Shown: positions 1,563 to 30,146 of the stretch, piece after piece
How positions within the stretch are numbered: position 1 is the first letter of the stretch
Layout: the number at the start of each line of letters is the position of its first letter
UHGV virus genome: UHGV-1362910
Strand: one strand, 5' to 3'
DNA: 40,040 nucleotides
From: a virus
Position numbers and translations under genes: made by a program
The notes under the pieces: generated by a model
What the model was told of the DNA's origin: nothing
Database searches by the model: none
The model's input: only the letters and a program-made list of their open reading frames with translations

Positions 1563-1906
1563 TGGTCCGTCTTATACTGCACCGCACGCTGTACCTTTGG
1601 CAGGGTAAGCCCGGCCCCATCTAAAAGATACCGCAGGGGATGTGCCGGCTCCCGGTGGGCCACTCCCTCATGCAACAGCTCCGTCATCAGGTCAAAAGCT
1701 TCCGCATTCCAGCCACTCCAGAACACCACATGTTCACAGACATCCGAACAGGACAGCAGTTCTCCTTTGTAGTCATAGCCCTTCTCCTCAAACAGCCACT
1801 GCAGTTCCGCATAGCTGGCCGATTCATTCTTGTTTATATAGTCCACCACAATTTTCTTTATCTCTTCTTTATTCGTGTTGTTCTCCCTTCTGTTGCGATA
1901 TCGCAA
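1511..1906 (-). CDS. Hypothetical early protein (start uncertain)
   Basis: Track ORF. The annotated TTG start lies inside the 16-bp palindrome, so the true start is probably the downstream GTG (…IVVDYINK). Confidence 0.4.
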   Translation of the reverse strand: MRYRNRRENNTNKEEIKKIVVDYINKNESASYAELQWLFEEKGYDYKGELLSCSDVCEHVVFWSGWNAEAFDLMTELLHEGVAHREPAHPLRYLLDGAGLTLPKVQRAVQYKTDHWAPVVFVKGPDSRAAE

Positions 1907-2834
1907 CTTTCGCCCTTATTTTATCCAGCAGCTCCATGTGTTTCTCCCGCCTACGTTCCTCTATCTCCATGGACTCAGCCATACTGAGTGCTGCCCTTTC
2001 GGTACTGCTGGTCCACGTCCTGTTAAAGCTATCAATGCCGCCTTCATAGATTCCCACTCCCGGAAGAAATGGGCGCAGCTGCTTGGCGGCTCTGGGTTTC
2101 CGTAATTCCCGCAATGCTTTCGCATGTGTCTGCCTTACTGCCTCTGCAGTGACTCCATATGTTTTTCCGATTTCAGCCAGGGTCATGTCCTGCTGATACC
2201 GTTTCCGTATCACCTCCGGCTGCCGGTCCGGGAGAGCATCCACACATCCCCACAATGTATCCTTAAGCTGCCCGTCCTGGATTTGTTCTACAACCTCTCC
2301 CTCTACATCCGTATCATCTCCAGTCAATTCTCCCACGGTGGCATCCTCACTGCTTTCTATCCCCATAACTGGAGCATCCAGGCTGCCCAGGTGAATCGCC
2401 CGGGCATTCTCCTTGATTTCCCATACCTGCTCCAAAATAAGGTCCAGCCCTGCTGCAATCTCAGTATCCGTGGGTTTCCTGCCATGCTCCATCTTGAACG
2501 ATTGACAAAACCGGTTGTACCTCTGTATCTTCTCCTGGCAATGGACCGGCAGACGCAGGCAGCTCCCATTCACCTGCAGGTAACGCTGCATCCCCTGCCG
2601 GATGTAATACGCTGCATAAGTCAGGAATTTAAACCCCTGGCCAGGGTCATACTTTTCAATGGCTGCATGGAGAGCCAGGTATCCTTCCTGCTCCAGGTCC
2701 TCCACCTCTCCGCTGTTACGGTACTTCATGGCCACAGAATGAATGTAGTCCCTTACCTGCAGATAAAGCTGTTCCATGTTCTTCTGTACATCCTCTCCGG
2801 CCTTAATCTGTGCTACAAGCTGCTCGTTTGTCAT
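1869..2834 (-). CDS. Sigma-70 family RNA polymerase sigma factor with a ~95-aa C-terminal extension
   Basis: Region 2 reads EGYLALHAAIEKYDPGQGFKFLTYAAYYIRQGMQRY. Region 4 HTH reads MTLAEIGKTYGVTAEAVRQTHAKALRELR. The start MTNEQ at 2834 follows GGAAGGGTGGGTG. Confidence 0.8.
   Translation of the reverse strand: MTNEQLVAQIKAGEDVQKNMEQLYLQVRDYIHSVAMKYRNSGEVEDLEQEGYLALHAAIEKYDPGQGFKFLTYAAYYIRQGMQRYLQVNGSCLRLPVHCQEKIQRYNRFCQSFKMEHGRKPTDTEIAAGLDLILEQVWEIKENARAIHLGSLDAPVMGIESSEDATVGELTGDDTDVEGEVVEQIQDGQLKDTLWGCVDALPDRQPEVIRKRYQQDMTLAEIGKTYGVTAEAVRQTHAKALRELRKPRAAKQLRPFLPGVGIYEGGIDSFNRTWTSSTERAALSMAESMEIEERRREKHMELLDKIRAKVAISQQKGEQHE
1892..1907. repeat. 16-bp perfect palindrome GTTGCGATATCGCAAC (copy 1)
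   Basis: Exact palindrome inside the last codons of the sigma gene, upstream of the next gene. Confidence 0.6.
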
Positions 2835-3129
2835 GGCAGTCACCCACCCTTCCATTTTTAGCAACCAATATGCTTATGTAGATTCGCCGCAGGAATTTAA
2901 GGTCATCAACATCCTTTAATGCGCTCATAATGCTTTTCCTGCATTCCCGGGCAACTCCTCTTTTATCTTCTGCTGCCCTATGGCCGGATTGCACCGGTGC
3001 AACTTCATCTACGTCGCCCGGGGTCATCTGCAGCAGCTCTCTAAGCTCCTGTAACTCTTCCATGGCTTTGTCGTAGCTTTCTAGCATCCGGTTGTGCTGC
3101 TCCACTGATATACATATCATTCTCTGCAT
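2803..3129 (-). CDS. Hypothetical early protein (108 aa)
   Basis: Track ORF immediately upstream of the sigma gene; it overlaps the sigma start. Confidence 0.45.
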   Translation of the reverse strand: MQRMICISVEQHNRMLESYDKAMEELQELRELLQMTPGDVDEVAPVQSGHRAAEDKRGVARECRKSIMSALKDVDDLKFLRRIYISILVAKNGRVGDCHDKRAACSTD

Positions 3130-3287
3130 GCCGCTGTCTCCTTCCTGCCCTCTGCAAGGCCTGCATAATATGCCCGGTTGGCCAAACTTACAATCGCCTC
3201 TGCCATCTCACGGTCTGTATCATCATGTTCCCCTATGGTCTTAAGCCACCTGTCAACGAATTCTCCTTTATTGATTGGAAATGTCAT
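3117..3287 (-). CDS. Hypothetical small protein (56 aa), translationally coupled
   Basis: ATG at 3287..3285 overlaps the TGA of the upstream ORF (ATGA). Translation is MTFPINKGEFVDRWLK... Confidence 0.3.
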   Translation of the reverse strand: MTFPINKGEFVDRWLKTIGEHDDTDREMAEAIVSLANRAYYAGLAEGRKETAACRE

Positions 3288-3490
3288 AACGTCACCTCTC
3301 CCCTTCTTCTCTTACGTTCATCCTTGATACCTTGAATACGCCCCAGATTGTAAACCGACGAACAAATGAAAAGGATATTCTCGCATCCGTACTCTTGAAT
3401 CCAATGTTGAAATATCCTTGCCTCGTCCGTTCCGGTCAGCCCTACTACCGGCTGATATTGAGAGATTATCAATTCCTCTTGTATGTTCAT
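3284..3490 (-). CDS. Hypothetical small early protein (68 aa)
   Basis: Track ORF; its ATG overlaps the TGA of the 3487..3687 ORF (ATGA). Confidence 0.4.
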   Translation of the reverse strand: MNIQEELIISQYQPVVGLTGTDEARIFQHWIQEYGCENILFICSSVYNLGRIQGIKDERKRRRGEVTL

Positions 3491-3687
3491 ACCGCCACTC
3501 CCATCCTTTCCTGCTTCACCTGAATCACTACATCAATAATATAGATACAACGGTCTCGTATCTCTTTCGGTATACCCTGTAATTCCAGTTCCGTTGCTTC
3601 ATCTTCCTTAAATTCCAATAACTCAGCCACATCCATCTTATACAGTTCCGTTACCAATTCTCGGACTAAATCTTCATGCAGCATCAT
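3487..3687 (-). CDS. Hypothetical small acidic protein (66 aa)
   Basis: Track ORF, the first in a chain of three coupled small genes. Confidence 0.4.
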   Translation of the reverse strand: MMLHEDLVRELVTELYKMDVAELLEFKEDEATELELQGIPKEIRDRCIYIIDVVIQVKQERMGVAV

Positions 3688-3770
3688 TAATCCTCTTCCC
3701 TTTCCGGCTCAGAGGTGCTATACTTATAAGTGGTTGAACTTTGGTATAGCGCCTCCAGGCCTATGCTTGT

Positions 3771-3805
3771 CCTTAACTAATTGGCGTTAGTTAGGGACTT
3801 TTTTT
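3771..3805 (+). terminator. Hairpin CCTTAACTAA-ttggcg-TTAGTTAGGG followed by T7, an intrinsic terminator in plus orientation
   Basis: 10-bp inverted repeat (1 mismatch) plus TTTTTTT at 3799-3805. On the minus strand the run precedes the stem, so it terminates plus-strand (antisense) transcription. Confidence 0.4.
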
Positions 3806-3954
3806 ATTGTGCGTCTCACGCCGGCGCCGCGGCTCACCAATCTCAGCTCCGTCTTTGTTTCTTCCAACACCAGCCAGTTGTTTACCACCAGGCCTGCCTT
3901 ACTCATCAGCGCCTTCTGGTTCCGGGTCGGCTTCTTTGCCCTGCTTCTCCCCAT
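3787..3954 (-). CDS. 55-aa basic protein MGRSRAKKPTRNQKALMSKAGLVVNNWLVLEETKTELRLVSRGAGVRRTIKKVPN
   Basis: ATG lies 4 nt after the TGA of the 376-aa gene. The stop lies inside the hairpin. It is below the 60-aa track cutoff. Confidence 0.3.
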   Translation of the reverse strand: MGRSRAKKPTRNQKALMSKAGLVVNNWLVLEETKTELRLVSRGAGVRRTIKKVPN

Positions 3955-3958
3955 CCGT

Positions 3959-5089
3959 TCACACCGCCTTTTTCATCCTGTCATGAAGCTCATCCTTTGG
4001 ACCGGACTCATTACAGTAAACATGCAAATCTCCCAAAACGTTCTCCCACTGTAGGAGCAGGAAGGTCAAGTCCCAGTTCTGATAGTCCCACAGGAGAGCG
4101 GCAACATCCTGGGCGTCCCCTATGGGCCTGTCTGCCGGCAGGCGCCTTAATCGGTCCATGGTATAGTAGTAATCCTTTGTCCCCCACTTCTCTCCGTCAT
4201 ATTCCTTCTTGACCGGGAACATCCTCAGCAGCTCCAAAGGTGTCAGCCTGCCGATGGTCTCCATGACCTGCTTTAACTCCTGGTACCTGTTCTCTATCTC
4301 CAGGCAGGACTTATGGGCTTTTGTGTGGTTGAACTCTGCATGATTCTCTTTTCCATAGGCCTTGACTGCCAGGAATATGTATTGTGCCAGGTCAACTCCC
4401 TGCAGTCTTCCTATGCAGCGTGTACCGCCATGGATATCCGTAAAGCGTCTCAGAGCCTTAGTATATTTCCCATTGCTCTCTACATGCGGCACAATTCCTG
4501 CCGTATTCCAGCTCTTCCAGGATTCCTTGATGAATGGTACCAGTATCTGGAGCGGACCGGGGAACATCCTTAACATCTGGATTACAAAGGCAGTCCTCCT
4601 ATTCAGTTTACGCATCCTGCCCAGGAGCTTCCGGTTCTCTAACTCCGCTTTAAACAGCTCCGTGACGTCCTGCTCGTCGTCCTCTCCTACCTTATATACA
4701 AAGCTGTCCATAAGGTCATCCTTAAGGTCTTTACTGCTTATCTTCCGTAAAGAATAGAGCATGTTGTTGACAGATATGGTCCAGTCACGGCATCCCTTGA
4801 TGATTTCATACATTTCATTCAGATATTCAGGCTGCAGGTACGCCTCTAATATCCCGCGGCAGGCCTCCATACCATCGGCATCTACCTGTAATTTCCATGG
4901 GGATGGCTGAATTCGCAGGACATGTACCTTATCCACCAGGCCTGCTGCTTCAATCCGGTCACAGCATGGCTTTGCATATAGCTCCATCCCGGCCTTGGCC
5001 ATCAGTTTCTGTATGTCAAACAGCATGTCCGGAACATAGGTCCCATCCTTAATATGGCTCAATACCACTTCTTTGGTTTCTTTCTCCAT
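3959..5089 (-). CDS. 376-aa protein of unknown function (accessory/moron candidate; Rx4H motif RFTDIH near residue 215)
   Basis: Long track ORF with an AGGAGGA RBS. No family was recognised by eye. It is flanked by an HTH gene, a 40-aa TM peptide and a terminator. Confidence 0.6.
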   Translation of the reverse strand: MEKETKEVVLSHIKDGTYVPDMLFDIQKLMAKAGMELYAKPCCDRIEAAGLVDKVHVLRIQPSPWKLQVDADGMEACRGILEAYLQPEYLNEMYEIIKGCRDWTISVNNMLYSLRKISSKDLKDDLMDSFVYKVGEDDEQDVTELFKAELENRKLLGRMRKLNRRTAFVIQMLRMFPGPLQILVPFIKESWKSWNTAGIVPHVESNGKYTKALRRFTDIHGGTRCIGRLQGVDLAQYIFLAVKAYGKENHAEFNHTKAHKSCLEIENRYQELKQVMETIGRLTPLELLRMFPVKKEYDGEKWGTKDYYYTMDRLRRLPADRPIGDAQDVAALLWDYQNWDLTFLLLQWENVLGDLHVYCNESGPKDELHDRMKKAV

Positions 5090-5104
5090 TGTCGTTTCAT
5101 CCTC

Positions 5105-7827: not shown

Positions 7828-8493
7828 CTATGCCGCTAAATACGCAATCCTCTGGAACTGTTGAATCTGCACTTTACATGCCTTATAGATATCTTTGTAA
7901 TGCATTTCCTGTCTAATGCTCTCTTTAATAACCTCACCAATGATATGTTCTATCAATATAAGGTTATTAAGCTGGCTTGTTGTCAGCGCATCCCTGGAAT
8001 CCGCCTGGATGCCTACGGCTTTGTTCGCAAGCTGTGAAAAACTTATGTAATACTTATCTGCATTTCTGCTTCCTTGGGCCTTTGCATATTCCACCAGCAT
8101 CTTGATTTCGTCAGTTTCCATACGTCGGTTCTTCTTACTCTCCAAACATGTCGCCTGCCAGAGAGTGGACTGACGTTCCATAAGTAGGCGGCGCATTTCG
8201 TAGAACTGGCGGACGAGTTCCACTTTGAACTCAACCACTATGTCATTGTTATCCAGGAAAGTAACCAGCAATGTTGCCTGTGGTTCGTTGAGCTGATAAA
8301 TCCTTGTTGGCCTTCCACCTTTGGGGTTTCCCGATTTCAAATCGGTAAACCTAATATTTCCAAATTTCTTTAAACTCTTCTGGTGCGTTTTAATCAAGGA
8401 TACTACTGACTCGTGTTGATTACCTGTTCCCTCTGCTATAACCATGCTGTCTGTAAAAACATCATTGCCGATGAATTTTACTAATGTGTTCAC
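7828..8493 (-). CDS. Rha family phage regulatory / antirepressor-like protein
   Basis: SMVIAEGTGNQHESVVSLIKTHQKSLKKFGNIRFTDLKSGNPKGGRPTRIYQLNEPQATLLVTF is a canonical Rha N-domain. It has a GTG start with AAAGGAGGG upstream. Confidence 0.7.
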   Translation of the reverse strand: MNTLVKFIGNDVFTDSMVIAEGTGNQHESVVSLIKTHQKSLKKFGNIRFTDLKSGNPKGGRPTRIYQLNEPQATLLVTFLDNNDIVVEFKVELVRQFYEMRRLLMERQSTLWQATCLESKKNRRMETDEIKMLVEYAKAQGSRNADKYYISFSQLANKAVGIQADSRDALTTSQLNNLILIEHIIGEVIKESIRQEMHYKDIYKACKVQIQQFQRIAYLAA

Positions 8494-8510
8494 TGTCCCT
8501 CCTTTGTTAG

Positions 8511-8526
8511 GTTTCTATTTTGAAAC
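8511..8526. promoter_or_regulatory. Operator-like palindrome GTTTCtattttGAAAC (O-site copy 1)
   Basis: Perfect 5-bp arms with a 6-nt spacer. Related copies occur at 8768-8787 and 8872-8887 around the repressor/cro divergent region. Confidence 0.4.
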
Positions 8527-8745
8527 TTTTTGAGCAAAAAAATATACTGGTATCTCCTGCGTATCAATATCAAGCAATTCGCACCATTTCATAATTTCTT
8601 CTTGCGACAGTCTTATATCATTGTTTAACTTAAGCGACATTGACCTGTCTGATAACTGATTTTCCATGGCAAATCTACGTTGTGTCCCGTATTTTTCTAC
8701 TATACGTCCTCTCAACTTGCTATAGTCAAAAACTACCTTGCGCAC
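8515..8745 (-). CDS. Cro-like small HTH protein (DUF739-like)
   Basis: VFDYSKLRGRIVEKYGTQRRFA...LSQEEIMKWCELLDIDTQEIPVYFFAQKVSK. The likely start is GTG at 8745 after AAGGAGGGG; the track TTG at 8766 lacks an RBS. Confidence 0.6.
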   Translation of the reverse strand: MRKVVFDYSKLRGRIVEKYGTQRRFAMENQLSDRSMSLKLNNDIRLSQEEIMKWCELLDIDTQEIPVYFFAQKVSK

Positions 8746-8767
8746 TCTTTTCCCCTCCTTTCCCAAC

Positions 8768-8787
8768 TAGTTTCTTTTTTGAAACTA
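8768..8787. promoter_or_regulatory. Operator palindrome TAGTTTCttttttGAAACTA (O-site copy 2) overlapping the PR +1 region
   Basis: Perfect 7-bp inverted repeat immediately downstream of the -10 of the early minus-strand promoter. Confidence 0.45.
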
Positions 8788-8792
8788 TCGTC

Positions 8793-8821
8793 ATTATATC
8801 TTGTGGTTTTCATCTTGTCAA
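8793..8821 (-). promoter_or_regulatory. Early lytic promoter (PR-like): TTGACA-17-TATAAT
   Basis: Perfect consensus hexamers on the minus strand (TTGACA 8821..8816, TATAAT 8798..8793) reading into the cro-like gene. Confidence 0.55.
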
Positions 8822-8861
8822 TATGAGATTTTCATTTTTTAAACTTTTTCATTCATGAGCC

Positions 8862-8890
8862 TTGATTTTTAGTTTCTATTTTGATATTAT
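8862..8890 (+). promoter_or_regulatory. Candidate repressor promoter TTGATT-17-TATTAT with an operator half-site (GTTTCTATTTTGATAT, 8872-8887) in the spacer
   Basis: Hexamers read on the plus strand. The leader would be very short (SD at 8897-8903, ATG at 8911), so the call is uncertain. Confidence 0.3.
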
Positions 8891-8910
8891 ATATCAAGGA
8901 GGGATTAAAA

Positions 8911-9483
8911 ATGAATAACCTAGTAAGTAATTTTAAAGACCGACTTAATCAAGCATTATCCATACGAAACATTAAACCTGTAGAGCTATCCGAAATTACT
9001 TCCATATCTAAATCTACGATTAGTCACTACATGTCCGGTTATACAAAACCTAAATCTGATAAATTATATGTATTGGCAAAGGCCTTAGATGTTACAGAAA
9101 CATGGCTTATGGGTTATGACGAACCTATGGAACGTAGTTCTATAATCATAGGCCACGAATTACAGCACCTTTTATTTCAAATAAGTATGGAATTAAGAAT
9201 ACCTTATGACGATCTTTTGCATGTTTTTCTTTCTCAAAATAAAATAGCCGCCACTGGCATACAACTTAATAAGGAAAATCTACTAGATTTTTTTATAGAT
9301 CATTATAACATCTCAAAAGAAAAGTACGATACTATGCAAAAGCAAGACGATAATGAAGATGATATTCCCGAAGAGATAAAAATCATTAGTAGAGCCGCCA
9401 AAAATATGACACCCGAAAAAAGACAGAAACTATTAAATATGGCAAAGGTAATGTTTGAGGAGGATTTTCCTGAGGATGTATAG
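8911..9483 (+). CDS. XRE-family HTH transcriptional repressor (CI-like)
   Basis: The HTH reads KPVELSEITSISKSTISHYMSG. The start MNNLV follows AAGGAGGG. Confidence 0.8.
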   Translation: MNNLVSNFKDRLNQALSIRNIKPVELSEITSISKSTISHYMSGYTKPKSDKLYVLAKALDVTETWLMGYDEPMERSSIIIGHELQHLLFQISMELRIPYDDLLHVFLSQNKIAATGIQLNKENLLDFFIDHYNISKEKYDTMQKQDDNEDDIPEEIKIISRAAKNMTPEKRQKLLNMAKVMFEEDFPEDV

Positions 9484-10161: not shown

Positions 10162-10794
10162 ATGAGAAAAACAAAATTATTTATCACCACGCTTGCAATG
10201 TCCATGGTTCTGAGCAGCACTGCCCTGGCCGGGACCTGGATGCAGGACTCTGCGGGTTGGTATTATCAAAACGACGATGGAAGTTTTCCTACTAACCAAT
10301 GGTTTCAAGATTTTGACGGAAAATGGTACTATCTAAATGAGTCCGGTTATATGCTTGTAGATGGAACCGCTCCAGATGGACGGGCTGTAGGTGCTGACGG
10401 TGCGTGGATACAGCAAGTAACAGGTGATGTGAACACGGTACTTCGCGAAATCAACAATTGGGTTATAGGCGACATTTGGAATCATGGATATTGCGACTTC
10501 TATCATTATGAATACGATGGAAAAGATAGTATCGGCCAGCCAATTGATATTGATTATGCACTCCAATTGTTCAAAGACTCCTATAAGAAAAAAGCTGGAT
10601 ATGATGCCTATATCAATTCTCTGTCAGATGATTATGCAGCGTTAAAAACCGCCTGGAATAAGCTAAGTGGGGAATCTGACAAATTGTATAGGCACTTTGA
10701 ATCTGGAGTACAACAGACTGGCACTGATACAGATACAGCAATTTTTGTTCAATATAGAGACGCTTTCTCAAAATGTGTAATGGAGAAAAGATAA
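10162..10794 (+). CDS. Secreted protein with cell-wall-binding repeats (lysogeny moron)
   Basis: Signal peptide MRKTKLFITTLAMSMVLSSTALA. Repeats GWYYQNDDGSF / GKWYYLNESGYM are of the same type as the endolysin C-terminus. It follows AAGGAGGG. Confidence 0.65.
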   Translation: MRKTKLFITTLAMSMVLSSTALAGTWMQDSAGWYYQNDDGSFPTNQWFQDFDGKWYYLNESGYMLVDGTAPDGRAVGADGAWIQQVTGDVNTVLREINNWVIGDIWNHGYCDFYHYEYDGKDSIGQPIDIDYALQLFKDSYKKKAGYDAYINSLSDDYAALKTAWNKLSGESDKLYRHFESGVQQTGTDTDTAIFVQYRDAFSKCVMEKR

Positions 10795-10840: not shown

Positions 10841-10951
10841 TAGATTTTCTCTTGCTGGCCGAATCCAGGAAGATATAATCCACTAACACACTTGAATTAT
10901 ATCATTCCTGGGACGTCCTGGCAAGAGGGCGTATTTTTGTACCCAAAATTT

Positions 10952-10967
10952 GTTGCGATGTCGCAAC
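10952..10967. repeat. Palindrome variant GTTGCGATGTCGCAAC (copy 2), 16 nt upstream of the int ATG
   Basis: One central mismatch; followed by GGGAAGGAATAATATT ATG. Confidence 0.6.
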
Positions 10968-10983
10968 GGGAAGGAATAATATT

Positions 10984-12120
10984 ATGCCAAAACGCAAGAA
11001 ACATCCCCGTCTCCCCAATGGCTACGGCTCCATCCGATACCTTGGCAAGAGCCGGAAGAACCCTTACGCAGTCCACCCGCCGGCGGACATTGATGGGAAC
11101 CGTCCCCCGGCCCTCTGCTACGTGGATGACTGGATGAAGGGATTCATTATCCTCACGTCCTACAAGGCCGGTACCTATACCCCCGGCATGGAGGCCGCCC
11201 TGGAGCTGCCCGATAACCCTGGTGCTCTTGATTCCCTGATAGAAAAAATCATGGCTGATTACAACCGTGTCAAAGGAGTAGAGCCGGACGAACCCGAAAA
11301 GACCTTCTCAGAGGTCTACAAGGCCTTCTACACGGATAAATTCTCCGAAGGCAATAAATACTCTAATGCAACCAAATATTCAATCAAGGCCGCATATAAA
11401 AACTGTGCGTCCCTCTATGATAAAATATTTAGCTCCCTCCGCGCAAAAGACCTGCAGGATAACCTGGATGCGTGTAATCTAAAATATGCCAGCCTGGAAC
11501 TTATCAGGAACCTGTACAGGCAAATGTATAAGTACGCTGACAGTCAAGGATGGTGTGATAAGGATTATAGCCAGTATGTCAAAATCAAACGGGATGACGA
11601 TGATGAACATGGTGTGCCATTTTCAGATGCAGACCTGAAAATCCTGTGGGATAACAAAACAAATGAAACCGCTGAGATGCTTCTCATAATGTGCTATTCC
11701 GGATGGCGTATATCAGAATACATTGGCCTCGAAGTGAATTTACAGAAAAAGTATTTTATGGGTGGAATAAAAACGGAAGCTGGTAAAGGACGTATCGTAC
11801 CAATTCATTCCGGTATTCTCCCTTTGGTTGAACGCCGGATAAGCAAGTATGGGAAGCTCCTTCCGTGCAGCGACAAAGATTTCAGAAAACAAATGGATGA
11901 GCTACTAAACCGGCTTGGAATTCCAGGTGACCCCAAACATACACCACATGACTGCCGGCATACATTTTCTATGTTGTGCGAAAAGTATGAGGTAAAAGAA
12001 AACGACCGTAAACGGATGATGGGACACTCATTCAAGGCCGACATTACCAACAAGGTTTACGGTCACCGTGACATAGAGGATCTGCGAAAAGAGCTAGAAA
12101 AGATAATCATTGATTTGTGA
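10984..12120 (+). CDS. int: Tyrosine-type site-specific integrase
   Basis: C-terminal catalytic residues HDCRHTFSML ... MGHS ... VYGH (R-H-R-Y pattern), 378 aa. A 16-bp palindrome lies 16 nt upstream of the ATG. Confidence 0.85.
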   Translation: MPKRKKHPRLPNGYGSIRYLGKSRKNPYAVHPPADIDGNRPPALCYVDDWMKGFIILTSYKAGTYTPGMEAALELPDNPGALDSLIEKIMADYNRVKGVEPDEPEKTFSEVYKAFYTDKFSEGNKYSNATKYSIKAAYKNCASLYDKIFSSLRAKDLQDNLDACNLKYASLELIRNLYRQMYKYADSQGWCDKDYSQYVKIKRDDDDEHGVPFSDADLKILWDNKTNETAEMLLIMCYSGWRISEYIGLEVNLQKKYFMGGIKTEAGKGRIVPIHSGILPLVERRISKYGKLLPCSDKDFRKQMDELLNRLGIPGDPKHTPHDCRHTFSMLCEKYEVKENDRKRMMGHSFKADITNKVYGHRDIEDLRKELEKIIIDL

Positions 12121-13452: not shown

Positions 13453-15425
13453 GTCGTACCTCCATTCCTTATCGCATCAATCTGTGCCTGTAAATCTGCT
13501 ATCACCATCCTGGTATCCTGTACATACTCCAGCTTCATATCCGGCTGCCCATCCGCTGTCACTGTGATGGTTGTCTGGCCTGTGTAAGTGGTAAGGGCAT
13601 TTAAAGCGGACTGGGTAGCGGCTGGGAGGGGTTCCCAGGTGGGGGCATCCAGGACAAACATTACATATACGTCATTATCTGCAACATATTGTTTGATGGC
13701 TGCATTAACTTCGTCCATTGTAGCAGTTGCTGTTACCCCAATTACTGTTATCGGCACTGCAATATAAATACCTCCGAGTCCATTGATTGAATAAACATTG
13801 TCCAGACCGCCACTTACCACGCTCCAATCTTTTACCATACCAGCAGGCGCTATGTTGCAATACCCGGTAGTTTTTTTGCCGTCACTATATAACCCCTTTT
13901 TACTCAATTCAGAATACTGCTTTGAATATATGACCGTATACCTGTTATCTATAATGCAATTGGGATAGGTGCTGTTCATACCCCCAGCCGATGGTCTTAC
14001 CGTATCTTCTGTTAGTATATCCATGGAGATGTTCCGCTCAATCCCCCACACGCCGCCCCGGCACATTATCCTGTCCCTGTAATCCCCGATGCCACGTAAC
14101 GGCTCCGTCAGGGTGATGGCTGCGGTCTTGGACTGGTAGGGTTCCCAGGGGAGAGCGGTGTCTCCAGCATTTAGCATGGGCTTGAATGTTAATGGGCCGG
14201 ATATACTTAATCGCATCACTATCCTTATTGCAATGGGATTGTCATCTGTAACTGTAAATCTTGAACCATTCCCAATATCAGAACCAATGACTTTATATGA
14301 ACCATTATTTACTGCATAAGCCATCAGTTGATATCCATCACCTCCTCCACCATTCGGACAACCAGAAATATAGTAATCCCCTAGTGGTAACGGCTCCTGA
14401 ATACGCAAATCAATATACGATGTCCCTGTACTAGTTCCAGTAGCTATTACTGTTCCATCTGGTTGTGGGCTATAAGTAACCCCAAGATAGTTTTTAGTAC
14501 TTAATGATGGTATGTCCAATAACTGCGCCCCCGTCACCGTCACCGCCGTGACATCCGTACTCACAATCTCCTGCGGATTATCCGGGCTGGGGTCTGCTCC
14601 CTGTTCACTCTTACCGGCTATCTCCAGGCCGGGTATTGGGGCCTCCCATGCATCAGACACTGTGACTTGCGTGGTTCCGGAGGCAGAATCTATAAGGGCA
14701 TTGGCATACTTAAGGTCAGTTTCACGGCGGTTGTAGCCCGCAAATGCCTCCTTCTGGCTCTCCACATATGCCTTATTCTCCTCTAATGCCCGCGCCGATG
14801 CTGTAGCGGATTTGGCAGACTCAGTGGCAGAATCGGCAGCGGCAGTCTTACTGGCCTGGGCATCATTGGCGTATCCCAGGGCTGTGGATACCCTTGATTC
14901 CATCTGCTGCATGAACTGTTCGTACCAAGAATGGTCTGGCTCCAGGATGCCTCCTCCGATTTCCAGTCCATCATGGATAGTATAGGTTGCAGGAAGGGTC
15001 TTCCACACAGTCCTTACTCCTGTACTGCTGGTACTGGTCGCATATATCATCACCTGGATTGTCCCCGGTTCCTGTGTGGCCTGCCCAGGTATCTCCCACA
15101 GCAGTCTGACGTAGTTGTCCGACCAGGACACATTGCAAGGTACGCTGTCACTTCCGCCATGCGCAGTCTGATAATGAATATACAGGTTCTGTACCGTCAG
15201 GTCAATTCCATCATCGTACCGCGGCAGCTGGAAGCCTACAAACTGAACGTTCTGCTCCCCGTACACCGATATCTGGTCATTAAAATCCACAATGCGTTTG
15301 TTGGTGACAGGGACATATTCCGGCTCCACGTATAGCCGATTAGATGGATAACTGTTATCCGCCGTCCATATCTCGTCATCAACCGCATAGGCTCGTGCTG
15401 TCAGTATCTCATCTACGGTTGCCAT
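13449..15425 (-). CDS. Tail-fibre / receptor-binding-like protein (658 aa) located between holin and endolysin
   Basis: Ala/Ser-rich coiled segment (AQASKTAAADSATESAKSATASARALEENKAYVESQKEAF) and Gly/Thr-rich beta-type regions. No enzymatic motif was seen. Confidence 0.5.
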   Translation of the reverse strand: MATVDEILTARAYAVDDEIWTADNSYPSNRLYVEPEYVPVTNKRIVDFNDQISVYGEQNVQFVGFQLPRYDDGIDLTVQNLYIHYQTAHGGSDSVPCNVSWSDNYVRLLWEIPGQATQEPGTIQVMIYATSTSSTGVRTVWKTLPATYTIHDGLEIGGGILEPDHSWYEQFMQQMESRVSTALGYANDAQASKTAAADSATESAKSATASARALEENKAYVESQKEAFAGYNRRETDLKYANALIDSASGTTQVTVSDAWEAPIPGLEIAGKSEQGADPSPDNPQEIVSTDVTAVTVTGAQLLDIPSLSTKNYLGVTYSPQPDGTVIATGTSTGTSYIDLRIQEPLPLGDYYISGCPNGGGGDGYQLMAYAVNNGSYKVIGSDIGNGSRFTVTDDNPIAIRIVMRLSISGPLTFKPMLNAGDTALPWEPYQSKTAAITLTEPLRGIGDYRDRIMCRGGVWGIERNISMDILTEDTVRPSAGGMNSTYPNCIIDNRYTVIYSKQYSELSKKGLYSDGKKTTGYCNIAPAGMVKDWSVVSGGLDNVYSINGLGGIYIAVPITVIGVTATATMDEVNAAIKQYVADNDVYVMFVLDAPTWEPLPAATQSALNALTTYTGQTTITVTADGQPDMKLEYVQDTRMVIADLQAQIDAIRNGGTT

Positions 15426-15757
15426 GCCTGTCCGCTCCCCCTCTCCTGCTTAATTGTAATCAGATTGGTGGTAATCCTCTGGCCGTTCTCACGCTGCCCA
15501 ACCACCCCGATTTTAAAAGTGTCACAGACCGTGATTTCATCCGGCACAATGCAGGCACCGTCTGTTATCAATGCAGCAACCTCCTCAGACTGTGGATAGG
15601 GATAAAATGCGGCCACCCTGACAGTCCCATCCCAGTCTGCCCCAAACTCGAATGCCGCCTGCAGGTAGCCGGATGTACCTGCGATTATGTTACTAAAATC
15701 ACAGCCAGGAGCCCTTATCAGCTCCTGGCCGGATACATTAAATCTTAATGTCCTCAT
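15413..15757 (-). CDS. Hypothetical protein (114 aa) downstream of the holin
   Basis: Track ORF with an AAAGG RBS. A palindrome lies 16 nt upstream of the ATG. Confidence 0.45.
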   Translation of the reverse strand: MRTLRFNVSGQELIRAPGCDFSNIIAGTSGYLQAAFEFGADWDGTVRVAAFYPYPQSEEVAALITDGACIVPDEITVCDTFKIGVVGQRENGQRITTNLITIKQERGSGQAWQP

Positions 15758-15773
15758 GGCATTGCCTTTCTGC

Positions 15774-15791
15774 GGTTGCGATATCGCAACC
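15774..15791. repeat. Palindrome GGTTGCGATATCGCAACC (copy 3), 16 nt upstream of the ATG of ORF 15413..15757
   Basis: Exact 18-bp palindrome abutting the holin stop codon. Confidence 0.6.
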
Positions 15792-24992: not shown

Positions 24993-25208
24993 CTACTCCT
25001 TTGGTGCGGCTCTAGGCTCTGTCATTTTTATATCCAACCTGTTTATGGTTTTACATCTGGGACATTTAATTTCCCCCTTAACGTATTCCGCCAGGAGAAG
25101 GGTCTGTCCACACCTTACACATCTTATTTTCTCAATCTTAACCACCTCCGCACATAGCCGCAAACATCTTCTCCAGGCCGGCCATTTCCTTCTCGAAGGT
25201 TTCCTCAT
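24993..25208 (-). CDS. Zinc-ribbon mini-ORF (CVRCG-x14-CPRCK) between the chaperone T and tape measure genes
   Basis: The frame is open across the intergenic gap with two CxxC pairs. There is no canonical start after the T stop, and the upstream ATG lies inside T, so the call is doubtful. Confidence 0.25.
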   Translation of the reverse strand: MRKPSRRKWPAWRRCLRLCAEVVKIEKIRCVRCGQTLLLAEYVKGEIKCPRCKTINRLDIKMTEPRAAPKE

Positions 25209-26259: not shown

Positions 26260-26667
26260 TCACTTTCTCTGATACACAAAATCCAGCCATATCACATATT
26301 CATATACACCCTTTTCATCCGTTCCCACGTCAACCGGTTCCGGTACCTGGAGGATGATACAATTAATGGATGTATCCCCTATGGACAGACTGGATACGTT
26401 TTTAATTTTCTCATACAGCTCATAGGCGGCCCGCTCTGATGCCTGTACGTCCCTGTCCCAATGAACCAGCAGGGAGATGCGCCGGACATCGTAGCTGCTG
26501 TAGTCATGGCCGCCCAGGGCCATCACAGGAGGACCGCTGCTCTGCCGGTGATATACACCAATGGAATGGTCCTTCTTGCTGTTCAGCTTCCCGATATAAA
26601 CATTCCTGTCAGCCGTAATTCCCAGGCCTCCTATGTATCCCCGGATGTCATCCAAGGTCAGCATCAT
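26260..26667 (-). CDS. Tail terminator / tail completion protein-like
   Basis: Positional call between the gp10-like and major tail genes. Confidence 0.45.
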   Translation of the reverse strand: MMLTLDDIRGYIGGLGITADRNVYIGKLNSKKDHSIGVYHRQSSGPPVMALGGHDYSSYDVRRISLLVHWDRDVQASERAAYELYEKIKNVSSLSIGDTSINCIILQVPEPVDVGTDEKGVYEYVIWLDFVYQRK

Positions 26668-27065
26668 ACACCACCTACTTTCTTGTAAAACCGCTTAAAT
26701 GCATTCCTGGCAAAATCCTGGCTTACTCCACCAGGTAGCCACGGTTCATACCATTCGCCACCGGCAAACGGGTTCTCATCCGTCTGGAAGTTGTATTCCG
26801 GATGAAAATACAGACGCCGCGCATAAGGCGTGTTTACCACCAGCGTCGCTTTCCCTTGACCACATTCTTTGTAATCCGCAAAAAAGCTGTCCTCCTCCAG
26901 GTGGCCTGTGTCAAAAGGCATCACCTGGGCCTGGACAACCTCCGTGTGTAGTGCCTCCGCTGTCATCTCCAAGGCAGTCACTGCCGCCTGTGTCAGCTGT
27001 TTAATCCGCGGGAAATTCATCTTCACAGTTGATTTAACCTGCATCAGACCACCTCCAACTGGCAA
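26664..27065 (-). CDS. HK97 gp10-family head-tail joining protein
   Basis: The motif VMPFDTGHLEEDS resembles the gp10 family vPvdTGnLr.S. Confidence 0.5.
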   Translation of the reverse strand: MPVGGGLMQVKSTVKMNFPRIKQLTQAAVTALEMTAEALHTEVVQAQVMPFDTGHLEEDSFFADYKECGQGKATLVVNTPYARRLYFHPEYNFQTDENPFAGGEWYEPWLPGGVSQDFARNAFKRFYKKVGGV

Positions 27066-27382
27066 TAGTTAACCGTCCCGTCCGGGTTTCTGGCCTTCAT
27101 CCCCTGCTCTATCCTCCGTTCTTCCCCGAATATGGTAACGGTACCCCCACTTAAGGTTGGGAAGTCTGGGGCAATGTCCCCGGGGAACAAGGCCGTACCT
27201 GTTATCTGCACCAGCTTCTTTTCTGTGGTCAGAATGGTCTTGGCCCGGTCCTGGAAGTTGCATTTCAATTCCAGGTCCAGCGCCTTCTCCGGCTTACCGT
27301 GGTTATCCGTGTCCTCCGACTCCAGATGGACATGTATATCTGTCTTACATAGCCGTTTTGGAACTAAGCATGGATATTTCAT
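27044..27382 (-). CDS. Head closure / head-tail adaptor protein
   Basis: Positional call, SPP1 gp16-like. Confidence 0.45.
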   Translation of the reverse strand: MKYPCLVPKRLCKTDIHVHLESEDTDNHGKPEKALDLELKCNFQDRAKTILTTEKKLVQITGTALFPGDIAPDFPTLSGGTVTIFGEERRIEQGMKARNPDGTVNYCQLEVV

Positions 27383-27385
27383 GGT

Positions 27386-27772
27386 TCACCTCGCTAATCG
27401 GCAGCACAAGCCCGTCTGGGACAGCAGGGCGTACACATCCCGCTTCATAGCCACGCCCTTGTCTGTAAATACGTTCCAGCTGCTGCCAAACTGTGCCGAC
27501 ACCCCGTTGATGCTGTAGCCCTGCAGGATGGTGTTAATCTCGTCTGCGTTCTCCCATTCAAAGTCCGCCTGCTGGCAGACCACTTCTTGGATAACATCCT
27601 GCTGGAAGGCTGTCAGATTAGAAAATCCCCGGCCCACAATACGGTTGTAGGTCAGGGAATCAACGTGGCGGCTGGCCTGCTTAAGGGCCTTGTCCAGCTC
27701 GTTCATGGGGATAACAGCCCCCTTGTATGCGTCACAGTAGTACTCATAGGTGACATAGGGTTCATAGGGCAT
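27386..27772 (-). CDS. gp6-like head-tail connector protein
   Basis: MPYEPYVTYEYY start at 27772 with an AAAAGGCGGGTGA RBS. The upstream basic track extension is probably not translated. Confidence 0.5.
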   Translation of the reverse strand: MPYEPYVTYEYYCDAYKGAVIPMNELDKALKQASRHVDSLTYNRIVGRGFSNLTAFQQDVIQEVVCQQADFEWENADEINTILQGYSINGVSAQFGSSWNVFTDKGVAMKRDVYALLSQTGLCCRLAR

Positions 27773-27773
27773 G

Positions 27774-28067
27774 TCATTCACCCGCCTTTTTACTCTCTGC
27801 TTTCTTTGCCGGTTCCTGCTTTGGGGCCCGGAGGGCTGCAATCTCTGCTTTCAATGCTTCGTTTTCAGTGTATCTTTCAGCCGCTATGTTCTGCAGATGC
27901 TCAATCTCTTTAACCGCCTTCATGTATTCATCATAAGGCACTGTCTTTCCGCGTCCATACGCAGTCACCCGGCCGTCATCACCCACAATATCAAAACCAG
28001 CATCCTGATAGGACTTCTGCTGGCTTTCATCAATGGTGTACTCTTTATTTCCCTTAACTGCTCTCAT
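27774..28067 (-). CDS. Hypothetical head protein (97 aa, Lys/Ala-rich C-terminus)
   Basis: Track ORF directly after the major capsid gene. Confidence 0.4.
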   Translation of the reverse strand: MRAVKGNKEYTIDESQQKSYQDAGFDIVGDDGRVTAYGRGKTVPYDEYMKAVKEIEHLQNIAAERYTENEALKAEIAALRAPKQEPAKKAESKKAGE

Positions 28068-28076
28068 ACTACCTCC

Positions 28077-28970
28077 TTACGCTCCGGCTGGCTCTACGTT
28101 CATGGCACATCCCTCCACCTTCTTTTCCAGAAGGAACAGGTCGCCATAGCAACGGTTCTGATACAAATATCCGTCCGCCGTTCTTGAATCCGTCCCTGGG
28201 GTGAACAGCTTGATATAGCTGTACTTATCCCGGCATACCACGCAGGAAGTATGAATCAGAATCCAGTTAATCTGCTTGGCGTCAGCGGAAGCTACACAGC
28301 CGGTTGTAAAGTCATACTTCGTCTTCATCCTGGCTGCCGGAACCATCTTTATGGTCACATCATCCAAGCTATGTACCTTACGGTTGATTGTGGACGGGGA
28401 TGCGACGGTCATAACCCTCTGGAGTCCTTCTGCCTCCTTCACAATCTTATTCATGGTTGGGGTGACATACAGCATCCTCCCCTCCTCCGGAACACCGGCC
28501 TCGTCCATCCTCGCCATTTCCTCGTCAAATGCTTCCAAGAAATTGGCTGCCGTAATCACATCGGTACTAATACGGCCTGAATAGGTGGTCAGCTCTGCAT
28601 GAAGTTTAGAATAGCGGTAGGAATCTTTTTCCGGGATAGCTTGTTCGGTCTCAAACGTGTTCTGTATGTTTGCCACGGATAAGGTCAGGTTTGTTTCGTC
28701 AATGTCCATGGGGTCAATCCAGAACTCCACATCCCTGTCGTGTTCCAGCTTCTTTGCCTCCCAGTCATTACTCAGGGTGCCTACATTGAATCCCGGTGTC
28801 CTGGTATGGTCCTTATACCCAGTCACTGCCATCCTTGGAAGTTTGATAGTCTGGGCATTGATGAACTTCACCTGCTGGTTACTCTGTGTTAAAGCATCAG
28901 AGCATAATTCCTTTGCGTACTTCTGCTGGAGCAGCTGTGTAAAGGTTGTTGCATAATCATATACTGCCAT
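28077..28970 (-). CDS. Major capsid protein
   Basis: 297 aa directly downstream of the scaffold gene, with SPP1-like gene order. Confidence 0.65.
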   Translation of the reverse strand: MAVYDYATTFTQLLQQKYAKELCSDALTQSNQQVKFINAQTIKLPRMAVTGYKDHTRTPGFNVGTLSNDWEAKKLEHDRDVEFWIDPMDIDETNLTLSVANIQNTFETEQAIPEKDSYRYSKLHAELTTYSGRISTDVITAANFLEAFDEEMARMDEAGVPEEGRMLYVTPTMNKIVKEAEGLQRVMTVASPSTINRKVHSLDDVTIKMVPAARMKTKYDFTTGCVASADAKQINWILIHTSCVVCRDKYSYIKLFTPGTDSRTADGYLYQNRCYGDLFLLEKKVEGCAMNVEPAGA

Positions 28971-28989
28971 TTCTTAATCCTCTCTTTCA

Positions 28990-29610
28990 TTAAAGTCCGA
29001 ACGCCTTTTTAAGGGCGTCGTCTGTCGCCTGCGTCTGCTGTTGCCCACTGGCTGCTCCCACCTGGATGAACCCGGTGGAGCCTGATGCCTGGGGTTTCAG
29101 CGCCGGCACGTCCTCAAGTACCTTGTTCAGGGCTGCCTTAAGCGCCTCATCATTGATTTTCCCATCCTGCCCCATGACCTGGCTTAAGTCGGCCATCTTA
29201 AGGACGTAAGGAATTGTTTTGGCATCAATCCCCAGTGATACCGCCGTCATGGTAGCTGCACTGTCAATCATGGCCTTCTGGGCCACTGCCTGGGCCTGGG
29301 TGAGCTGCTGCTGGATTGCGCCCACATCCGGCTGCTGGGCCGCCTTCTGCTGCTTAAATGTGGCAATTGCCTGTTCCATTTCTTCCTGGCTGAGCCCCTG
29401 CTGCTTGAAGTAGGCTTTCAAGGCCGTGTCCTCCTTAGCGGCCAGAGTCCCGTCCAACATTTGCTGGATTTTAGCATAATCAATTGCAGGGGATGCCTGC
29501 TGTCCTGTTTGGGTCTGTGTCTGCTGGTTCTGACCTCCTGCCGGCGGCTCGGCTCCTCCCGCTCCACCTGCGGGCTCAGCAAATAACTGTAAGTTCATAC
29601 GTTTCATCAT
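28990..29610 (-). CDS. Scaffolding protein
   Basis: N-terminal MNLQLFAE motif typical of Firmicute phage scaffolds, followed by Gln/Ala-rich coiled regions. GGAGGT lies before ATGATG. Confidence 0.65.
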   Translation of the reverse strand: MMKRMNLQLFAEPAGGAGGAEPPAGGQNQQTQTQTGQQASPAIDYAKIQQMLDGTLAAKEDTALKAYFKQQGLSQEEMEQAIATFKQQKAAQQPDVGAIQQQLTQAQAVAQKAMIDSAATMTAVSLGIDAKTIPYVLKMADLSQVMGQDGKINDEALKAALNKVLEDVPALKPQASGSTGFIQVGAASGQQQTQATDDALKKAFGL

Positions 29611-29745
29611 CCATACCTCCATTTTAAGGGTGTCACCCTGTAATTTTTATTGCATCCATTGTCATCAGTGTCGCTGGCCACGCAGCAGTTTTAAGCCATG
29701 CTCGTGTTTGGGCGTAAAAATAACACCCGGGATAGTCCCGCGTGC

Positions 29746-30114
29746 TTATCGCAAATTATAACCTGTCCGTTTCATGTTTTTTGTTACAGCATTAATGATT
29801 TCATCTTCATCCAGATGTGCCGTAACATCCATGGAAACTTTCGTCACAGCCGGCTCGTAAGTTGCAAGGAAGATATCCGGCTTACACGGATATATCTCTC
29901 CTGCTATACCACGGATAATATAATCCCCCACACTGGCCTCATGTACACCTTCCAGAGTCTGAATCATGAATTTCACATCCGGCGTCCCTGCATTTTCAAA
30001 CCACGCCACCTTGCTTTTGATAGCCTCGATAATCCATTCAGGGTCATCCTCCTGCTCTGGTCCTCCTGTCCATTGAAAAGCCTCAATTACCACTGGTTTC
30101 TTTCTGTATTTCAT
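29746..30114 (-). CDS. Hypothetical head-module protein (122 aa, MKYRKKPVVIEAFQW...)
   Basis: ATG at 30114 after GGAAAGAGAGG. A palindrome lies 17 nt upstream. Confidence 0.5.
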   Translation of the reverse strand: MKYRKKPVVIEAFQWTGGPEQEDDPEWIIEAIKSKVAWFENAGTPDVKFMIQTLEGVHEASVGDYIIRGIAGEIYPCKPDIFLATYEPAVTKVSMDVTAHLDEDEIINAVTKNMKRTGYNLR

Positions 30115-30130
30115 TCTTATCCTCTCTTTC

Positions 30131-30146
30131 CGTTGCGATATCGCAA
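30131..30146. repeat. Palindrome GTTGCGATATCGCAAC (copy 4), 17 nt upstream of the ATG of ORF 29746..30114
   Basis: Exact 16-bp palindrome followed by GGAAAGAGAGGATAAGA ATG. Confidence 0.6.

Follow-up and report, generated by a model that had tools for sequence, protein, structure and literature searches.

The virus genome UHGV-1362910, analysed here over its whole stretch of 40,040 nucleotides (the window), is a temperate siphophage-type genome that reads mainly from the minus strand. Among its genes are those for a cI-like XRE repressor and an ImmA-type peptidase and a cro-like DUF739 gene in divergent orientation, and it also encodes two Rha proteins, an ORF6N/C protein, a DnaB-like helicase, a sigma-70-family factor and an ArpU/DUF1492-like protein. 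The structural and lysis genes comprise terminase, portal, minor capsid protein, capsid, a tail module, holin and an NlpC/P60 lysin, and there is a tyrosine integrase gene (int). A scan of the window for tRNA and tmRNA genes found none. The closest GenBank phages are Enterocloster phages, which cover just 3% of the window. Scattered among these genes we noticed a recurrent 16-bp perfect palindrome, GTTGCGATATCGCAAC (here denoted PAL), and we followed its copies in the window, in related phages and in host chromosomes.

Four copies of PAL in front of gene starts

Exact copies of PAL are located at 1892-1907, 15775-15790 and 30132-30147, and a variant with one mismatch, GTTGCGATGTCGCAAC, lies at 10952-10967 (Table 1). 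Searching the window at up to 3 mismatches revealed no sites beyond these four. In 100 dinucleotide-preserving shuffles the mean number of PAL matches was 0.13 and none of the shuffles (0/100) contained 4, which shows PAL to be non-random and bears out the initial annotation, where it had been described as a recurrent control-type palindrome tied to start codons, with four copies (three exact and one with a mismatch by our count). Three of the sites it gave are right, 15774-15791 being the 18-bp palindrome to which copy 3 extends, GGTTGCGATATCGCAACC; its position for copy 4 is one base off and should read 30132-30147. A palindrome scan of the window showed that the PAL copies are the only perfect 16-bp palindromes besides a related one, ATTGCACCGGTGCAAC, at 2988-3003. 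The 8-mer half-site ATCGCAAC matches 7 times in the window, against 0.9 expected, and all matches fall within the four PAL sites; isolated half-sites were sought across the window and none was found.

The distance from PAL to the start is 15-17 nucleotides for all four copies, and each is followed directly by a purine-rich Shine-Dalgarno sequence. For int, open reading frame (ORF) 15413-15757 and the gene denoted MKYRKK, the measured distances to the ATG are 16, 17 and 17 nucleotides, in line with the 16-17 nucleotides previously given for three copies. The remaining copy had been placed in the last codons of the sigma-factor gene, which we confirm; in addition, it lies 15 nucleotides upstream of an ACG at 1874-1876 (minus strand) that is ATG in two 99%-identical relatives, L040 and L052 (L numbers denote related loci). 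Given the ATG in these relatives, all four copies have one architecture and the window bears a start-codon substitution. The ACG could be a loss of the start codon, a case of non-canonical initiation or a sequencing error. The gene behind copy 1 belongs to the phrog_7134 family. The sigma-70-family factor itself (1869-2831, minus strand; phrog_351) is full length, with regions 2, 3 and 4, and its frame spans PAL copy 1 as well as the Shine-Dalgarno sequence that serves the following gene.

Table 1. Positions of the PAL copies, their start signals and adjoining features in the window
Feature	Position	Strand	Remarks
PAL copy 1, GTTGCGATATCGCAAC	1892..1907	-	within the final codons of the sigma-factor ORF (1869-2831); 15 nt 5' of the start of ORF 1511-1876
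Copy 1 Shine-Dalgarno AGAAGGGAGAACAAC and start position	1874..1891	-	ACG in the window, ATG in L040 and L052
PAL copy 2, GTTGCGATGTCGCAAC	10952..10967	+	hybrid: CGAT left half, GTCG right half; 16 nt 5' of the integrase ATG
Copy 2 Shine-Dalgarno GGGAAGGAATAATATT and ATG 10984 of the tyrosine integrase gene (10984-12120)	10968..10986	+	
Terminator-like hairpin and T-run	10913..10942	+	closes gene 10162-10794; ends 9 nt 5' of PAL copy 2
PAL copy 3, GGTTGCGATATCGCAACC	15774..15791	-	18-bp perfect palindrome; adjoins the holin stop TAG (15793-15791)
Copy 3 Shine-Dalgarno GCAGAAAGGCAATGCC and ATG 15757 of ORF 15413-15757 (phrog_19695)	15755..15773	-	17 nt spacing
PAL copy 4, GTTGCGATATCGCAAC	30132..30147	-	17 nt 5' of the MKYRKK gene ATG 30114
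Copy 4 Shine-Dalgarno GGAAAGAGAGGATAAGA and ATG of the MKYRKK ORF 29746-30114 (phrog_419)	30112..30131	-	
Intrinsic terminator, ATACCACCAGTCAGTAATGGCCGGTGGTAT and U-run	30154..30185	-	overlaps the end of ORF 30168-30332
Related palindrome ATTGCACCGGTGCAAC, a CACCGGTG variant	2988..3003	-	inside ORF 2803-3129, encodes VAPVQ; without Shine-Dalgarno or start behind it

The copies are spread over the lysogeny, early, head and lysis modules, as had been stated. In predicted RNA folds the copies each form a self-contained 6-bp hairpin (-5 to -7 kcal/mol). The coding strand after PAL is the purine-rich Shine-Dalgarno sequence without a U-tract, and a terminator scan flagged only the non-coding strand of copy 3; lacking a coding-strand U-tract, PAL is not an intrinsic terminator, a point on which our analysis and the initial annotation agree. 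In the predicted folds the Shine-Dalgarno sequence and the start are unpaired in copies 1 and 4 and partly paired in copy 3. Long-range pairing that hides the Shine-Dalgarno sequence was predicted for copy 2 (int) only, inside a larger fold. Among the ~55 genes of the window, a compact hairpin immediately before the Shine-Dalgarno sequence is seen at the four PAL genes alone.

At copy 4, a strong intrinsic terminator stops 3-4 nucleotides short of PAL, and terminator, PAL and Shine-Dalgarno sequence together make up a conserved cassette of ~70 nucleotides, which in other phages is found upstream of at least 8 downstream flank families. The MKYRKK gene has terminator-like hairpins on either side (29728-30185, the 3' one at 29740-29728) amid the head-gene block, a moron-like layout. 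Shortly downstream of copy 3, the first 60 nucleotides of the coding sequence of ORF 15413-15757 include a GC-rich 12-bp hairpin with a T-run behind it (15702-15731, minus strand). The CACCGGTG-type palindrome that encodes VAPVQ is kept in the protein family of ORF 2803-3129, at L040:3995, L052:7925, L072:648 and L546-L551:8130.

A family of palindromes at the joints of related phages

The exact 16-mer was found in more than 116 IMG/VR stretches, mostly from human-gut samples; this count and the host counts given below are lower bounds. PAL is a member of a family of perfect 16-bp palindromes with the inner sequences CGATATCG, CGACGTCG, CACCGGTG and TGAYRTCA, present in more than 100 contigs and prophages of uncultivated Lachnospiraceae (Enterocloster/Hungatella/Lacrimispora) phages. 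The family was collected by scans that left the inner 8 nucleotides free and were anchored either on the terminator or on GTTG-N8-CAAC plus AGRAAGGAG. The terminator-anchored scan gave CGATATCG as the commonest inner sequence (39 contexts), and the second scan gave CGACGTCG in 24 contexts and CGATATCG and CACCGGTG in 18 each. One-step asymmetric variants were each rarer than these three chief palindromes, and TGATATCA and TGACGTCA forms occur too. When the inner part was fixed instead, the outer arms were GTTG/CAAC in 29 of 44 contexts, and two-sided arm changes (TGTG/CACA, CTTG/CAAG, GTG/CAC) were seen.

The family members recur in a small set of contexts. PAL is found between a terminator and the Shine-Dalgarno sequence and ATG of differing genes, or between a stop codon and a Shine-Dalgarno sequence with its ATG, or after a stop codon and before a terminator, often with a second palindrome (for example TTGTGACGTCACAA or GTTGTGATATTACAAC) in between, an arrangement that in L022 lies upstream of the endolysin gene. 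A few sites are located within coding sequence. A Shine-Dalgarno sequence and start codon follow 37 of 99 distinct sites of related phages, with a spacing peak at 14-18 nucleotides. At least 46 gene families lie downstream of PAL. They include three integrase families, Xis-like helix-turn-helix (HTH) proteins, three endolysin types, ArpU-like activators and terS (L438), as well as antirepressors, prohead protease, portal protein and many small moron-like or unassigned genes.

Loci with several non-adjacent sites nearly always carry one variant class; L406, L408, L422, L466 and L469, for example, each have 2-4 CACCGGTG sites. The main exceptions are stacked units, L442 and the CACCGGTG-type site inside one conserved ORF. 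The same downstream family may be preceded by different variants in different phages, as seen for MKYRKK, a 42-amino-acid membrane protein and integrases. In one locus of a Clostridiaceae metagenome-assembled genome (L150:7580-7642), GTTGTAACGTTACAAC, ATTGCACCGGTGCAAC and GTTGCGATATCGCAAC follow one another head to tail, with a terminator on one side of the stack and the end of a gene on the other. Terminator-PAL-Shine-Dalgarno cassettes were absent from the GenBank isolate phages (INPHARED), and a full-text literature search with 12-14-mers matched only unrelated PCR primers.

A short GC-containing intergenic palindrome that is at times stacked, like REP/BIME units, and that a terminator scan flags once, on the non-coding strand of copy 3, might be taken for a host REP-like repeat, a chance repeat or an intrinsic terminator. 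Scanning of genomes, one per species and 596 Gb in all, gave ~76 matches in unrelated phyla and ~44 in Enterocloster, Hungatella, Lacrimispora and other Lachnospiraceae/Clostridia, among 120 matches listed. The former number is in keeping with the ~140 matches expected by chance in 596 Gb. Homologues of window phage proteins accompany 24 of the 44 Lachnospiraceae-type loci vs 0 of the 76 others, again among the matches listed. Large host chromosomes (3.8-6.9 Mb) carry at least 1-4 PAL copies, all in prophage-type contexts: at least 4 in the 6.4 Mb of E. aldenensis and at least 2 in the 6.9 Mb of H. hathewayi, compared to 3 exact copies in the 40 kb of the phage. On the matches listed, the host REP-like element that the initial annotation had named as its counter-hypothesis is therefore not what PAL is, and with the shuffles and the missing coding-strand U-tract, this group of explanations is effectively refuted.

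Comparison of related loci showed that the flanks on the two sides of PAL assort independently. The flank with the ACCACC terminator is joined to 8 partner families, that with TTGTGACGTCACAA plus terminator to 9, and the MRTLRFN gene to 4 upstream partners. At 25 homologous junctions the downstream gene is 85-91% identical, and on the upstream side the ends of at least 5 unrelated genes fall at the left arm of PAL or within it. In some cases a gene is bracketed by two PAL copies (MKYRKK in L005 and L237, an ArpU-like gene in ~nine loci). In the window int adjoins the lysis genes, and the two corresponding PAL junctions are ~36 kb apart in Enterocloster aldenensis (L217, L222), as would be expected if the window were the circular form of a phage integrated there. 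Three lineages (L497, L501, L509, at ~2470-2500) have internal deletions of PAL, with remnants GTT..AAC or TTGC..AAC before an otherwise conserved Shine-Dalgarno sequence and gene; PAL is deletion-prone, yet it is kept in most lineages. Beyond what the initial annotation described, PAL is thus a member of a palindrome family that is widespread in related phages and lies exactly at mosaic junctions, which, as judged from the flanking sequences, appear to be joints where gene modules are swapped.

The independent flanks and the 25 homologous junctions, together with the bracketed genes, raise the possibility that PAL is a recombination linker with little or no regulatory role, that is, a short identical sequence at functionally neutral joints used for module exchange between co-infecting phages or prophages of one gene pool, comparable to lambdoid boundary sequences or the PeSL cassettes of T4-type phages. 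The uniformity of variants would then follow from recombination between like variants only, and stacks of differing variants, as in L150, resemble joints between pools. We consider this improbable as the sole explanation. Sixteen base pairs are very short for homologous exchange, and a palindrome is unneeded for it and costly, being deletion-prone. Neither the perfect symmetry nor the fact that few junctions per genome bear PAL is explained, selection for evolvability alone is weak, and any conserved functional element would be expected at junctions equally.

We also weighed PAL as part of a promoter, either an element for the phage sigma factor or an alternative holoenzyme, or a +1 operator of a sigma-A promoter within the terminator-PAL cassette. 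Genes after PAL follow terminators and so need a restart of transcription, the window has a full sigma-70-family factor (regions 2, 3 and 4), and TGGTATTTT in the 3' arm of the terminator resembles an extended -10 element and is 10-fold enriched upstream of PAL. That motif, however, is the terminator itself and lies at a variable 2-17 nucleotides from PAL. Upstream of 102 non-redundant sites no position carries information, so that there is no conserved sequence at a fixed upstream distance, and a sigma-70 promoter scan gave a sole match at the PAL copies, TTGCGA-16-AATAAT at copy 2, that would start transcription within the gene. Since the 13-18 nucleotides between PAL and the start hold the Shine-Dalgarno sequence, with a -35-like role transcription would likewise begin within the gene. 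Palindromic symmetry is not a property of promoters, and sigma homologues were present in just 3 PAL loci. A promoter role is thus very unlikely and, like the repeat and terminator readings, largely excluded. The enriched TGNTANNNT motif is just the 3' arm plus U-run of one terminator family, 2-17 nucleotides off.

DNA or RNA as the form in which PAL is read

The initial annotation had left a choice between a dimeric HTH operator, an RNA hairpin and a site for a nicking or modifying protein. Our data narrow this choice and do not settle it: symmetry and variant uniformity favour DNA, and the flush Shine-Dalgarno sequence favours RNA. To describe the symmetry we used 68 non-redundant sequences with PAL and Shine-Dalgarno, in which the outer four pairs were fixed by the search and which were pre-filtered for at least 3 of 4 inner pairs. 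All four inner 'pairs' vary on both sides. Positions 7/10 are AU in 43, CG in 17 and GU in 7 sequences, and positions 8/9 are CG in 37, UA in 18 and UG in 4. Taken together with the scans in which the inner part was fixed, the stem pairs 1/16, 2/15, 5/12 and 6/11 covary, as do the 'loop' positions 7/10 and 8/9, in few independent events. Since 7/10 and 8/9 are unable to pair in a 16-nucleotide hairpin, the constraint on them would act on the duplex.

The register of the Shine-Dalgarno sequence was determined for 38 sites that were not chosen for having one, assuming the usual Firmicutes 16S rRNA 3' end, ...CCUCCUUUCU. The base that pairs with the 3'-terminal 16S rRNA nucleotide is the first after PAL in 20 of the 38 sites and lies within -1 to +2 in 28. 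These numbers speak for an element that acts as RNA: the transcribed PAL would be a 6-bp stem-loop that ends where the helix between Shine-Dalgarno and anti-Shine-Dalgarno begins. Such a hairpin might insulate the initiation region and stabilise the downstream cistron, with a 5' stem-loop and a strong Shine-Dalgarno sequence blocking 5'-3' decay, possibly after cleavage in the AU-rich tract upstream; alternatively, it might be the operator of a sequence-specific RNA-binding regulator of translation. At 3' positions the same hairpins would shield the upstream message.

Several further observations fit an RNA hairpin. PAL always lies within co-directional transcription units and never in the two switch regions examined, the folds of copies 1 and 4 leave the Shine-Dalgarno sequence and start single-stranded, and the compact hairpin before the Shine-Dalgarno sequence is restricted to the four PAL genes of the window. 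The stem covaries at 5/12 (from CG to UA), at 6/11 (from GC to AU) and in its outer arms, mRNA-sense intermediates of the U.G/G.U type (C5U, C11U) are commoner than A.C, and the 10 nucleotides upstream of PAL are AU-rich and G-poor. The window also encodes a sub-threshold Com-like zinc ribbon, and Com of phage Mu binds an mRNA hairpin just upstream of a ribosome-binding site.

Against an RNA hairpin, the central four (loop) bases are self-complementary in all abundant variants and covary, and a hairpin needs neither. Sequence conservation is far above structural need, with a handful of variants only, and more than half of the sites are not beside a Shine-Dalgarno sequence. On its upstream side PAL lies just as close to the stop codon or terminator, and the register could therefore result from tight packing. 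Several lineages retain the gene despite a damaged left arm or a deleted palindrome. The Com-like ORF is found in only 8 of the 34 loci that hold the neighbouring gene, and the whole window gave no Rfam family at gathering score.

On balance we tentatively place first, at somewhat less than even confidence, the reading in which PAL is a double-stranded DNA site of a dimeric reader, a gate resembling a stoperator; an RNA hairpin is nearly as likely. Dyad symmetry that runs through the centre and is perfect over the full 16 bp of all abundant variants, few discrete variants and uniformity within a genome favour a homodimeric DNA reader with co-evolving sites, since a plain structural hairpin requires none of the three. 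One variant per locus combined with variant swaps within a gene family is the pattern expected of operator/regulator specificity pairs. Sites away from starts (between stop codon and terminator, stacked with a second palindrome, or in coding sequence) fit a DNA site, and the genes behind PAL are ones that a lysogen must gate.

According to the DNA-reader model, PAL would be a lineage-specific cis-regulatory site of temperate phages of Enterocloster, Hungatella and Lacrimispora, a discrete 16-bp unit. On one side of it an expression unit would end, with a stop codon or terminator, and on the other would stand the Shine-Dalgarno sequence of a following gene under separate control, for instance int, xis, endolysin, arpU, terS, antirepressor or moron genes. 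The putative reader would be a sequence-specific homodimer on double-stranded DNA, distinct from the cI/Cro switch protein. Once bound, it might serve as a gate or roadblock at the head of the gene, as mycobacteriophage stoperators do, and bar read-through transcription from genes that need silence or timing. Each phage population would have its own site variant matched to its own reader. As the same 16-mer recurs at functionally neutral joints, PAL would also be a crossover point for module exchange. Protein binding, DNA rather than RNA as its target and a repressive effect are what we infer from the pattern of sites.

A number of observations weigh against this model. Tblastn of all window proteins against the PAL loci revealed no co-occurring reader for CGATATCG, a search made uninformative by the nature of the loci, which are fragments of at most 15 kb dominated by head genes. 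The exact CGATATCG variant is common to phages with unrelated early regions, and PAL is absent from both cI/cro switch regions examined (window and L208). A roadblock need not abut the Shine-Dalgarno sequence, yet 20 of 38 sites start the register at the first base after PAL; no promoter is conserved at a fixed distance upstream of PAL, and the distance between stacked palindromes, 15-18 bp, keeps to no fixed helical phase. The covariation counts rest on just three or four independent variant switches. Finally, the arm next to the Shine-Dalgarno sequence is usually the better conserved, and one-sided changes fall mostly in the distal arm; on the sense strand they read C-to-T or A-to-G, so that G.U pairs can still form in the mRNA. 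The one-sided pattern would equally arise from sense-strand mutation bias or from crossovers within PAL, and relatives with changes in the proximal arm exist too.

As to candidate binders, the initial annotation had named XRE, Xis-like, ArpU and sigma proteins. This part found no support: the cI-like XRE repressor has different operators of its own, and we saw no evidence that would link Xis, ArpU or sigma to PAL. We tried PAL itself as a cI/Cro operator and rejected it, as no PAL at up to 3 mismatches is present in 8480-8920, where AGTTTC-N7-GAAACT occurs four times instead. It was likewise rejected as the immunity operator of L208, where the switch has its own CAAAAGCAAATGTTTTTG repeats and PAL sits between cro and the gene after it. 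Centromeres of the ParB/parS type are 16-bp perfect palindromes as well, but Pfam and PHROGs scans of a part of the window's ORFs revealed no ParB-like domain. The protein of ORF 2803-3129 (MQRMICIS...ESYDKAMEELQEL) is a weak lead as a candidate reader, suggested by its gene neighbourhood: in relatives PAL-type sites lie before, within or after its gene. It had no match in Pfam, NCBIfam or PDB, and its AlphaFold model, which is of low confidence (pLDDT 59), consists of helices only.

The Com-like ORF was tried as the binder of an RNA hairpin and rejected, being below the Pfam cut-off and present in the minority of loci given above. It lies at 24993-25145 on the minus strand (IRCVRCGQTLLLAEYVKGEIKCPRCK) and scores 21.0 bits with PF10122, for which the cut-off is 22.9. 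The ORF and the end of the Gp15-like tail chaperone gene overlap, and its GGAGG is followed by no canonical start codon; a frameshift may extend the chaperone into this ORF, or the ORF may be a tiny gene of its own.

Stated more broadly, PAL might be the cis element of a multi-specificity gene-gating system in Firmicutes temperate phages, with a putative phage-encoded reader and sites that double as compatibility tags, setting where modules can be exchanged and between which phages. We regard this extended version as rather unlikely; if true, the 'linker' that the modular theory of phage evolution postulates would gain a concrete molecular form. Any such reader would have control over integration, excision, lysis and late-gene entry in prophages whose hosts are abundant in the human gut. 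PAL sites would also help to explain and predict where these phages recombine, and the motif family sharply marks this prophage group as well as the boundaries of gene units in poorly annotated gut viromes.

Known phage repeats and neighbouring signals

The closest parallels to PAL are the SAS and ESAS elements of Cluster K mycobacteriophages (Pope et al. 2011, PMC3203893). Like them, PAL is multi-copy, phage-specific and tied to translation starts before many gene families; the resemblance includes an inverted repeat directly upstream of a sequence containing the Shine-Dalgarno, a sublineage-specific consensus and absence from the host genome (PMC3203893). SAS, however, is a 13-bp asymmetric motif, GGGATAGGAGCCC, that includes the Shine-Dalgarno sequence, and the ESAS repeats are imperfect, 17 bp long and set apart by a spacer of 4-13 bp, the authors having seen little to suggest that they pair as RNA (PMC3203893). 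PAL abuts an ordinary Shine-Dalgarno sequence and is perfect and unspaced. SAS is confined to the non-structural half of phages of Actinobacteria, while PAL is found in all modules, also off starts, in phages of Firmicutes (PMC3203893).

PAL also resembles the stoperators of Cluster A, sites of the L5 gp71 repressor, in being a short site dispersed in short intergenic gaps near stops and starts (PMC4351075, PMC3203893). The consensus is specific to the group in both, and the role proposed for stoperators is to block elongation through the prophage (PMC4351075, PMC3203893). Stoperators are 13 bp long, asymmetric, oriented with transcription and present in 20-30 or more copies, whereas PAL is symmetric with ~4 copies; they are identical to the early-promoter operator bound by the immunity repressor, whereas PAL is absent from the immunity switch. 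The 17-bp dyad repeat of Cluster O, TGTTCGGNNNCCGAACA, likewise consists of scattered palindromes, partly intergenic and partly coding, with one gene flanked in a way that suggests recombination (PMC4351075). Unlike PAL, it has more than 30 copies and a non-conserved 3-bp centre, is not closely linked to starts and belongs to phages that are not temperate (PMC4351075). PAL shares the logic of SAS/ESAS, Cluster O repeats and stoperators but fails their defining features of sequence and symmetry. In PAL, start linkage, perfect symmetry and junction position come together, in phages of Firmicutes. Among the short repeats tied to starts or stops in mycobacteriophages, a function has been assigned to stoperators only, and SAS/ESAS and the Cluster O palindromes have been without one for more than a decade; PAL of Lachnospiraceae prophages is a structurally cleaner, second independent system for asking what such elements do.

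Like the REP/BIME elements of enterobacteria, PAL is a short, transcribed palindrome after stops or between cistrons that comes in several sequence types and is sometimes stacked. REPs are imperfect, 20-40 nucleotides long and present in hundreds of host copies with RAYT transposases, whereas PAL is perfect, 16 bp, confined to phages and prophages and without an associated transposase. The PeSL (promoter-early stem-loop) cassettes of T4-type phages are, like PAL, repeated regulatory stem-loop units at gene boundaries and shuffling points. They hold a recognisable early promoter and flank small ORFs of hyperplastic regions, in lytic phages, whereas for PAL no promoter could be shown. The nut boxB of lambda-type phages and the RNase III sites of T7 and SP82 are phage-specific short hairpins in transcription units, near terminators or between cistrons, as PAL is. 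BoxB has a phage-specific sequence and a non-palindromic GNRA-like loop and occurs with boxA once per operon near the promoter, and RNase III sites need stems of ~20 bp; PAL fits neither description.

Two signals near the subjects treated above were seen in addition. In and beside the cI/cro intergenic region (8509-8890) lie four copies of a 21-nucleotide repeat with the core AGTTTC-N7-GAAACT, which presumably serve as immunity operators; next to them, on the minus strand, is a perfect TTGACA-17-TATAAT promoter (8821-8793). Upstream of int, the minus strand at 10896-10924 carries a near-consensus sigma-70-type promoter, TTGCCA-17-TATAAT with an upstream TG, directed away from int, and its -35 element falls within the loop of the 'terminator' that precedes PAL copy 2. 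The ATTATATCAT motif is kept in other int-type PAL contexts (L025, L040, L041, L075, L076, L089, L421). This promoter would give an antisense or leftward transcript, with PAL centred near -70.

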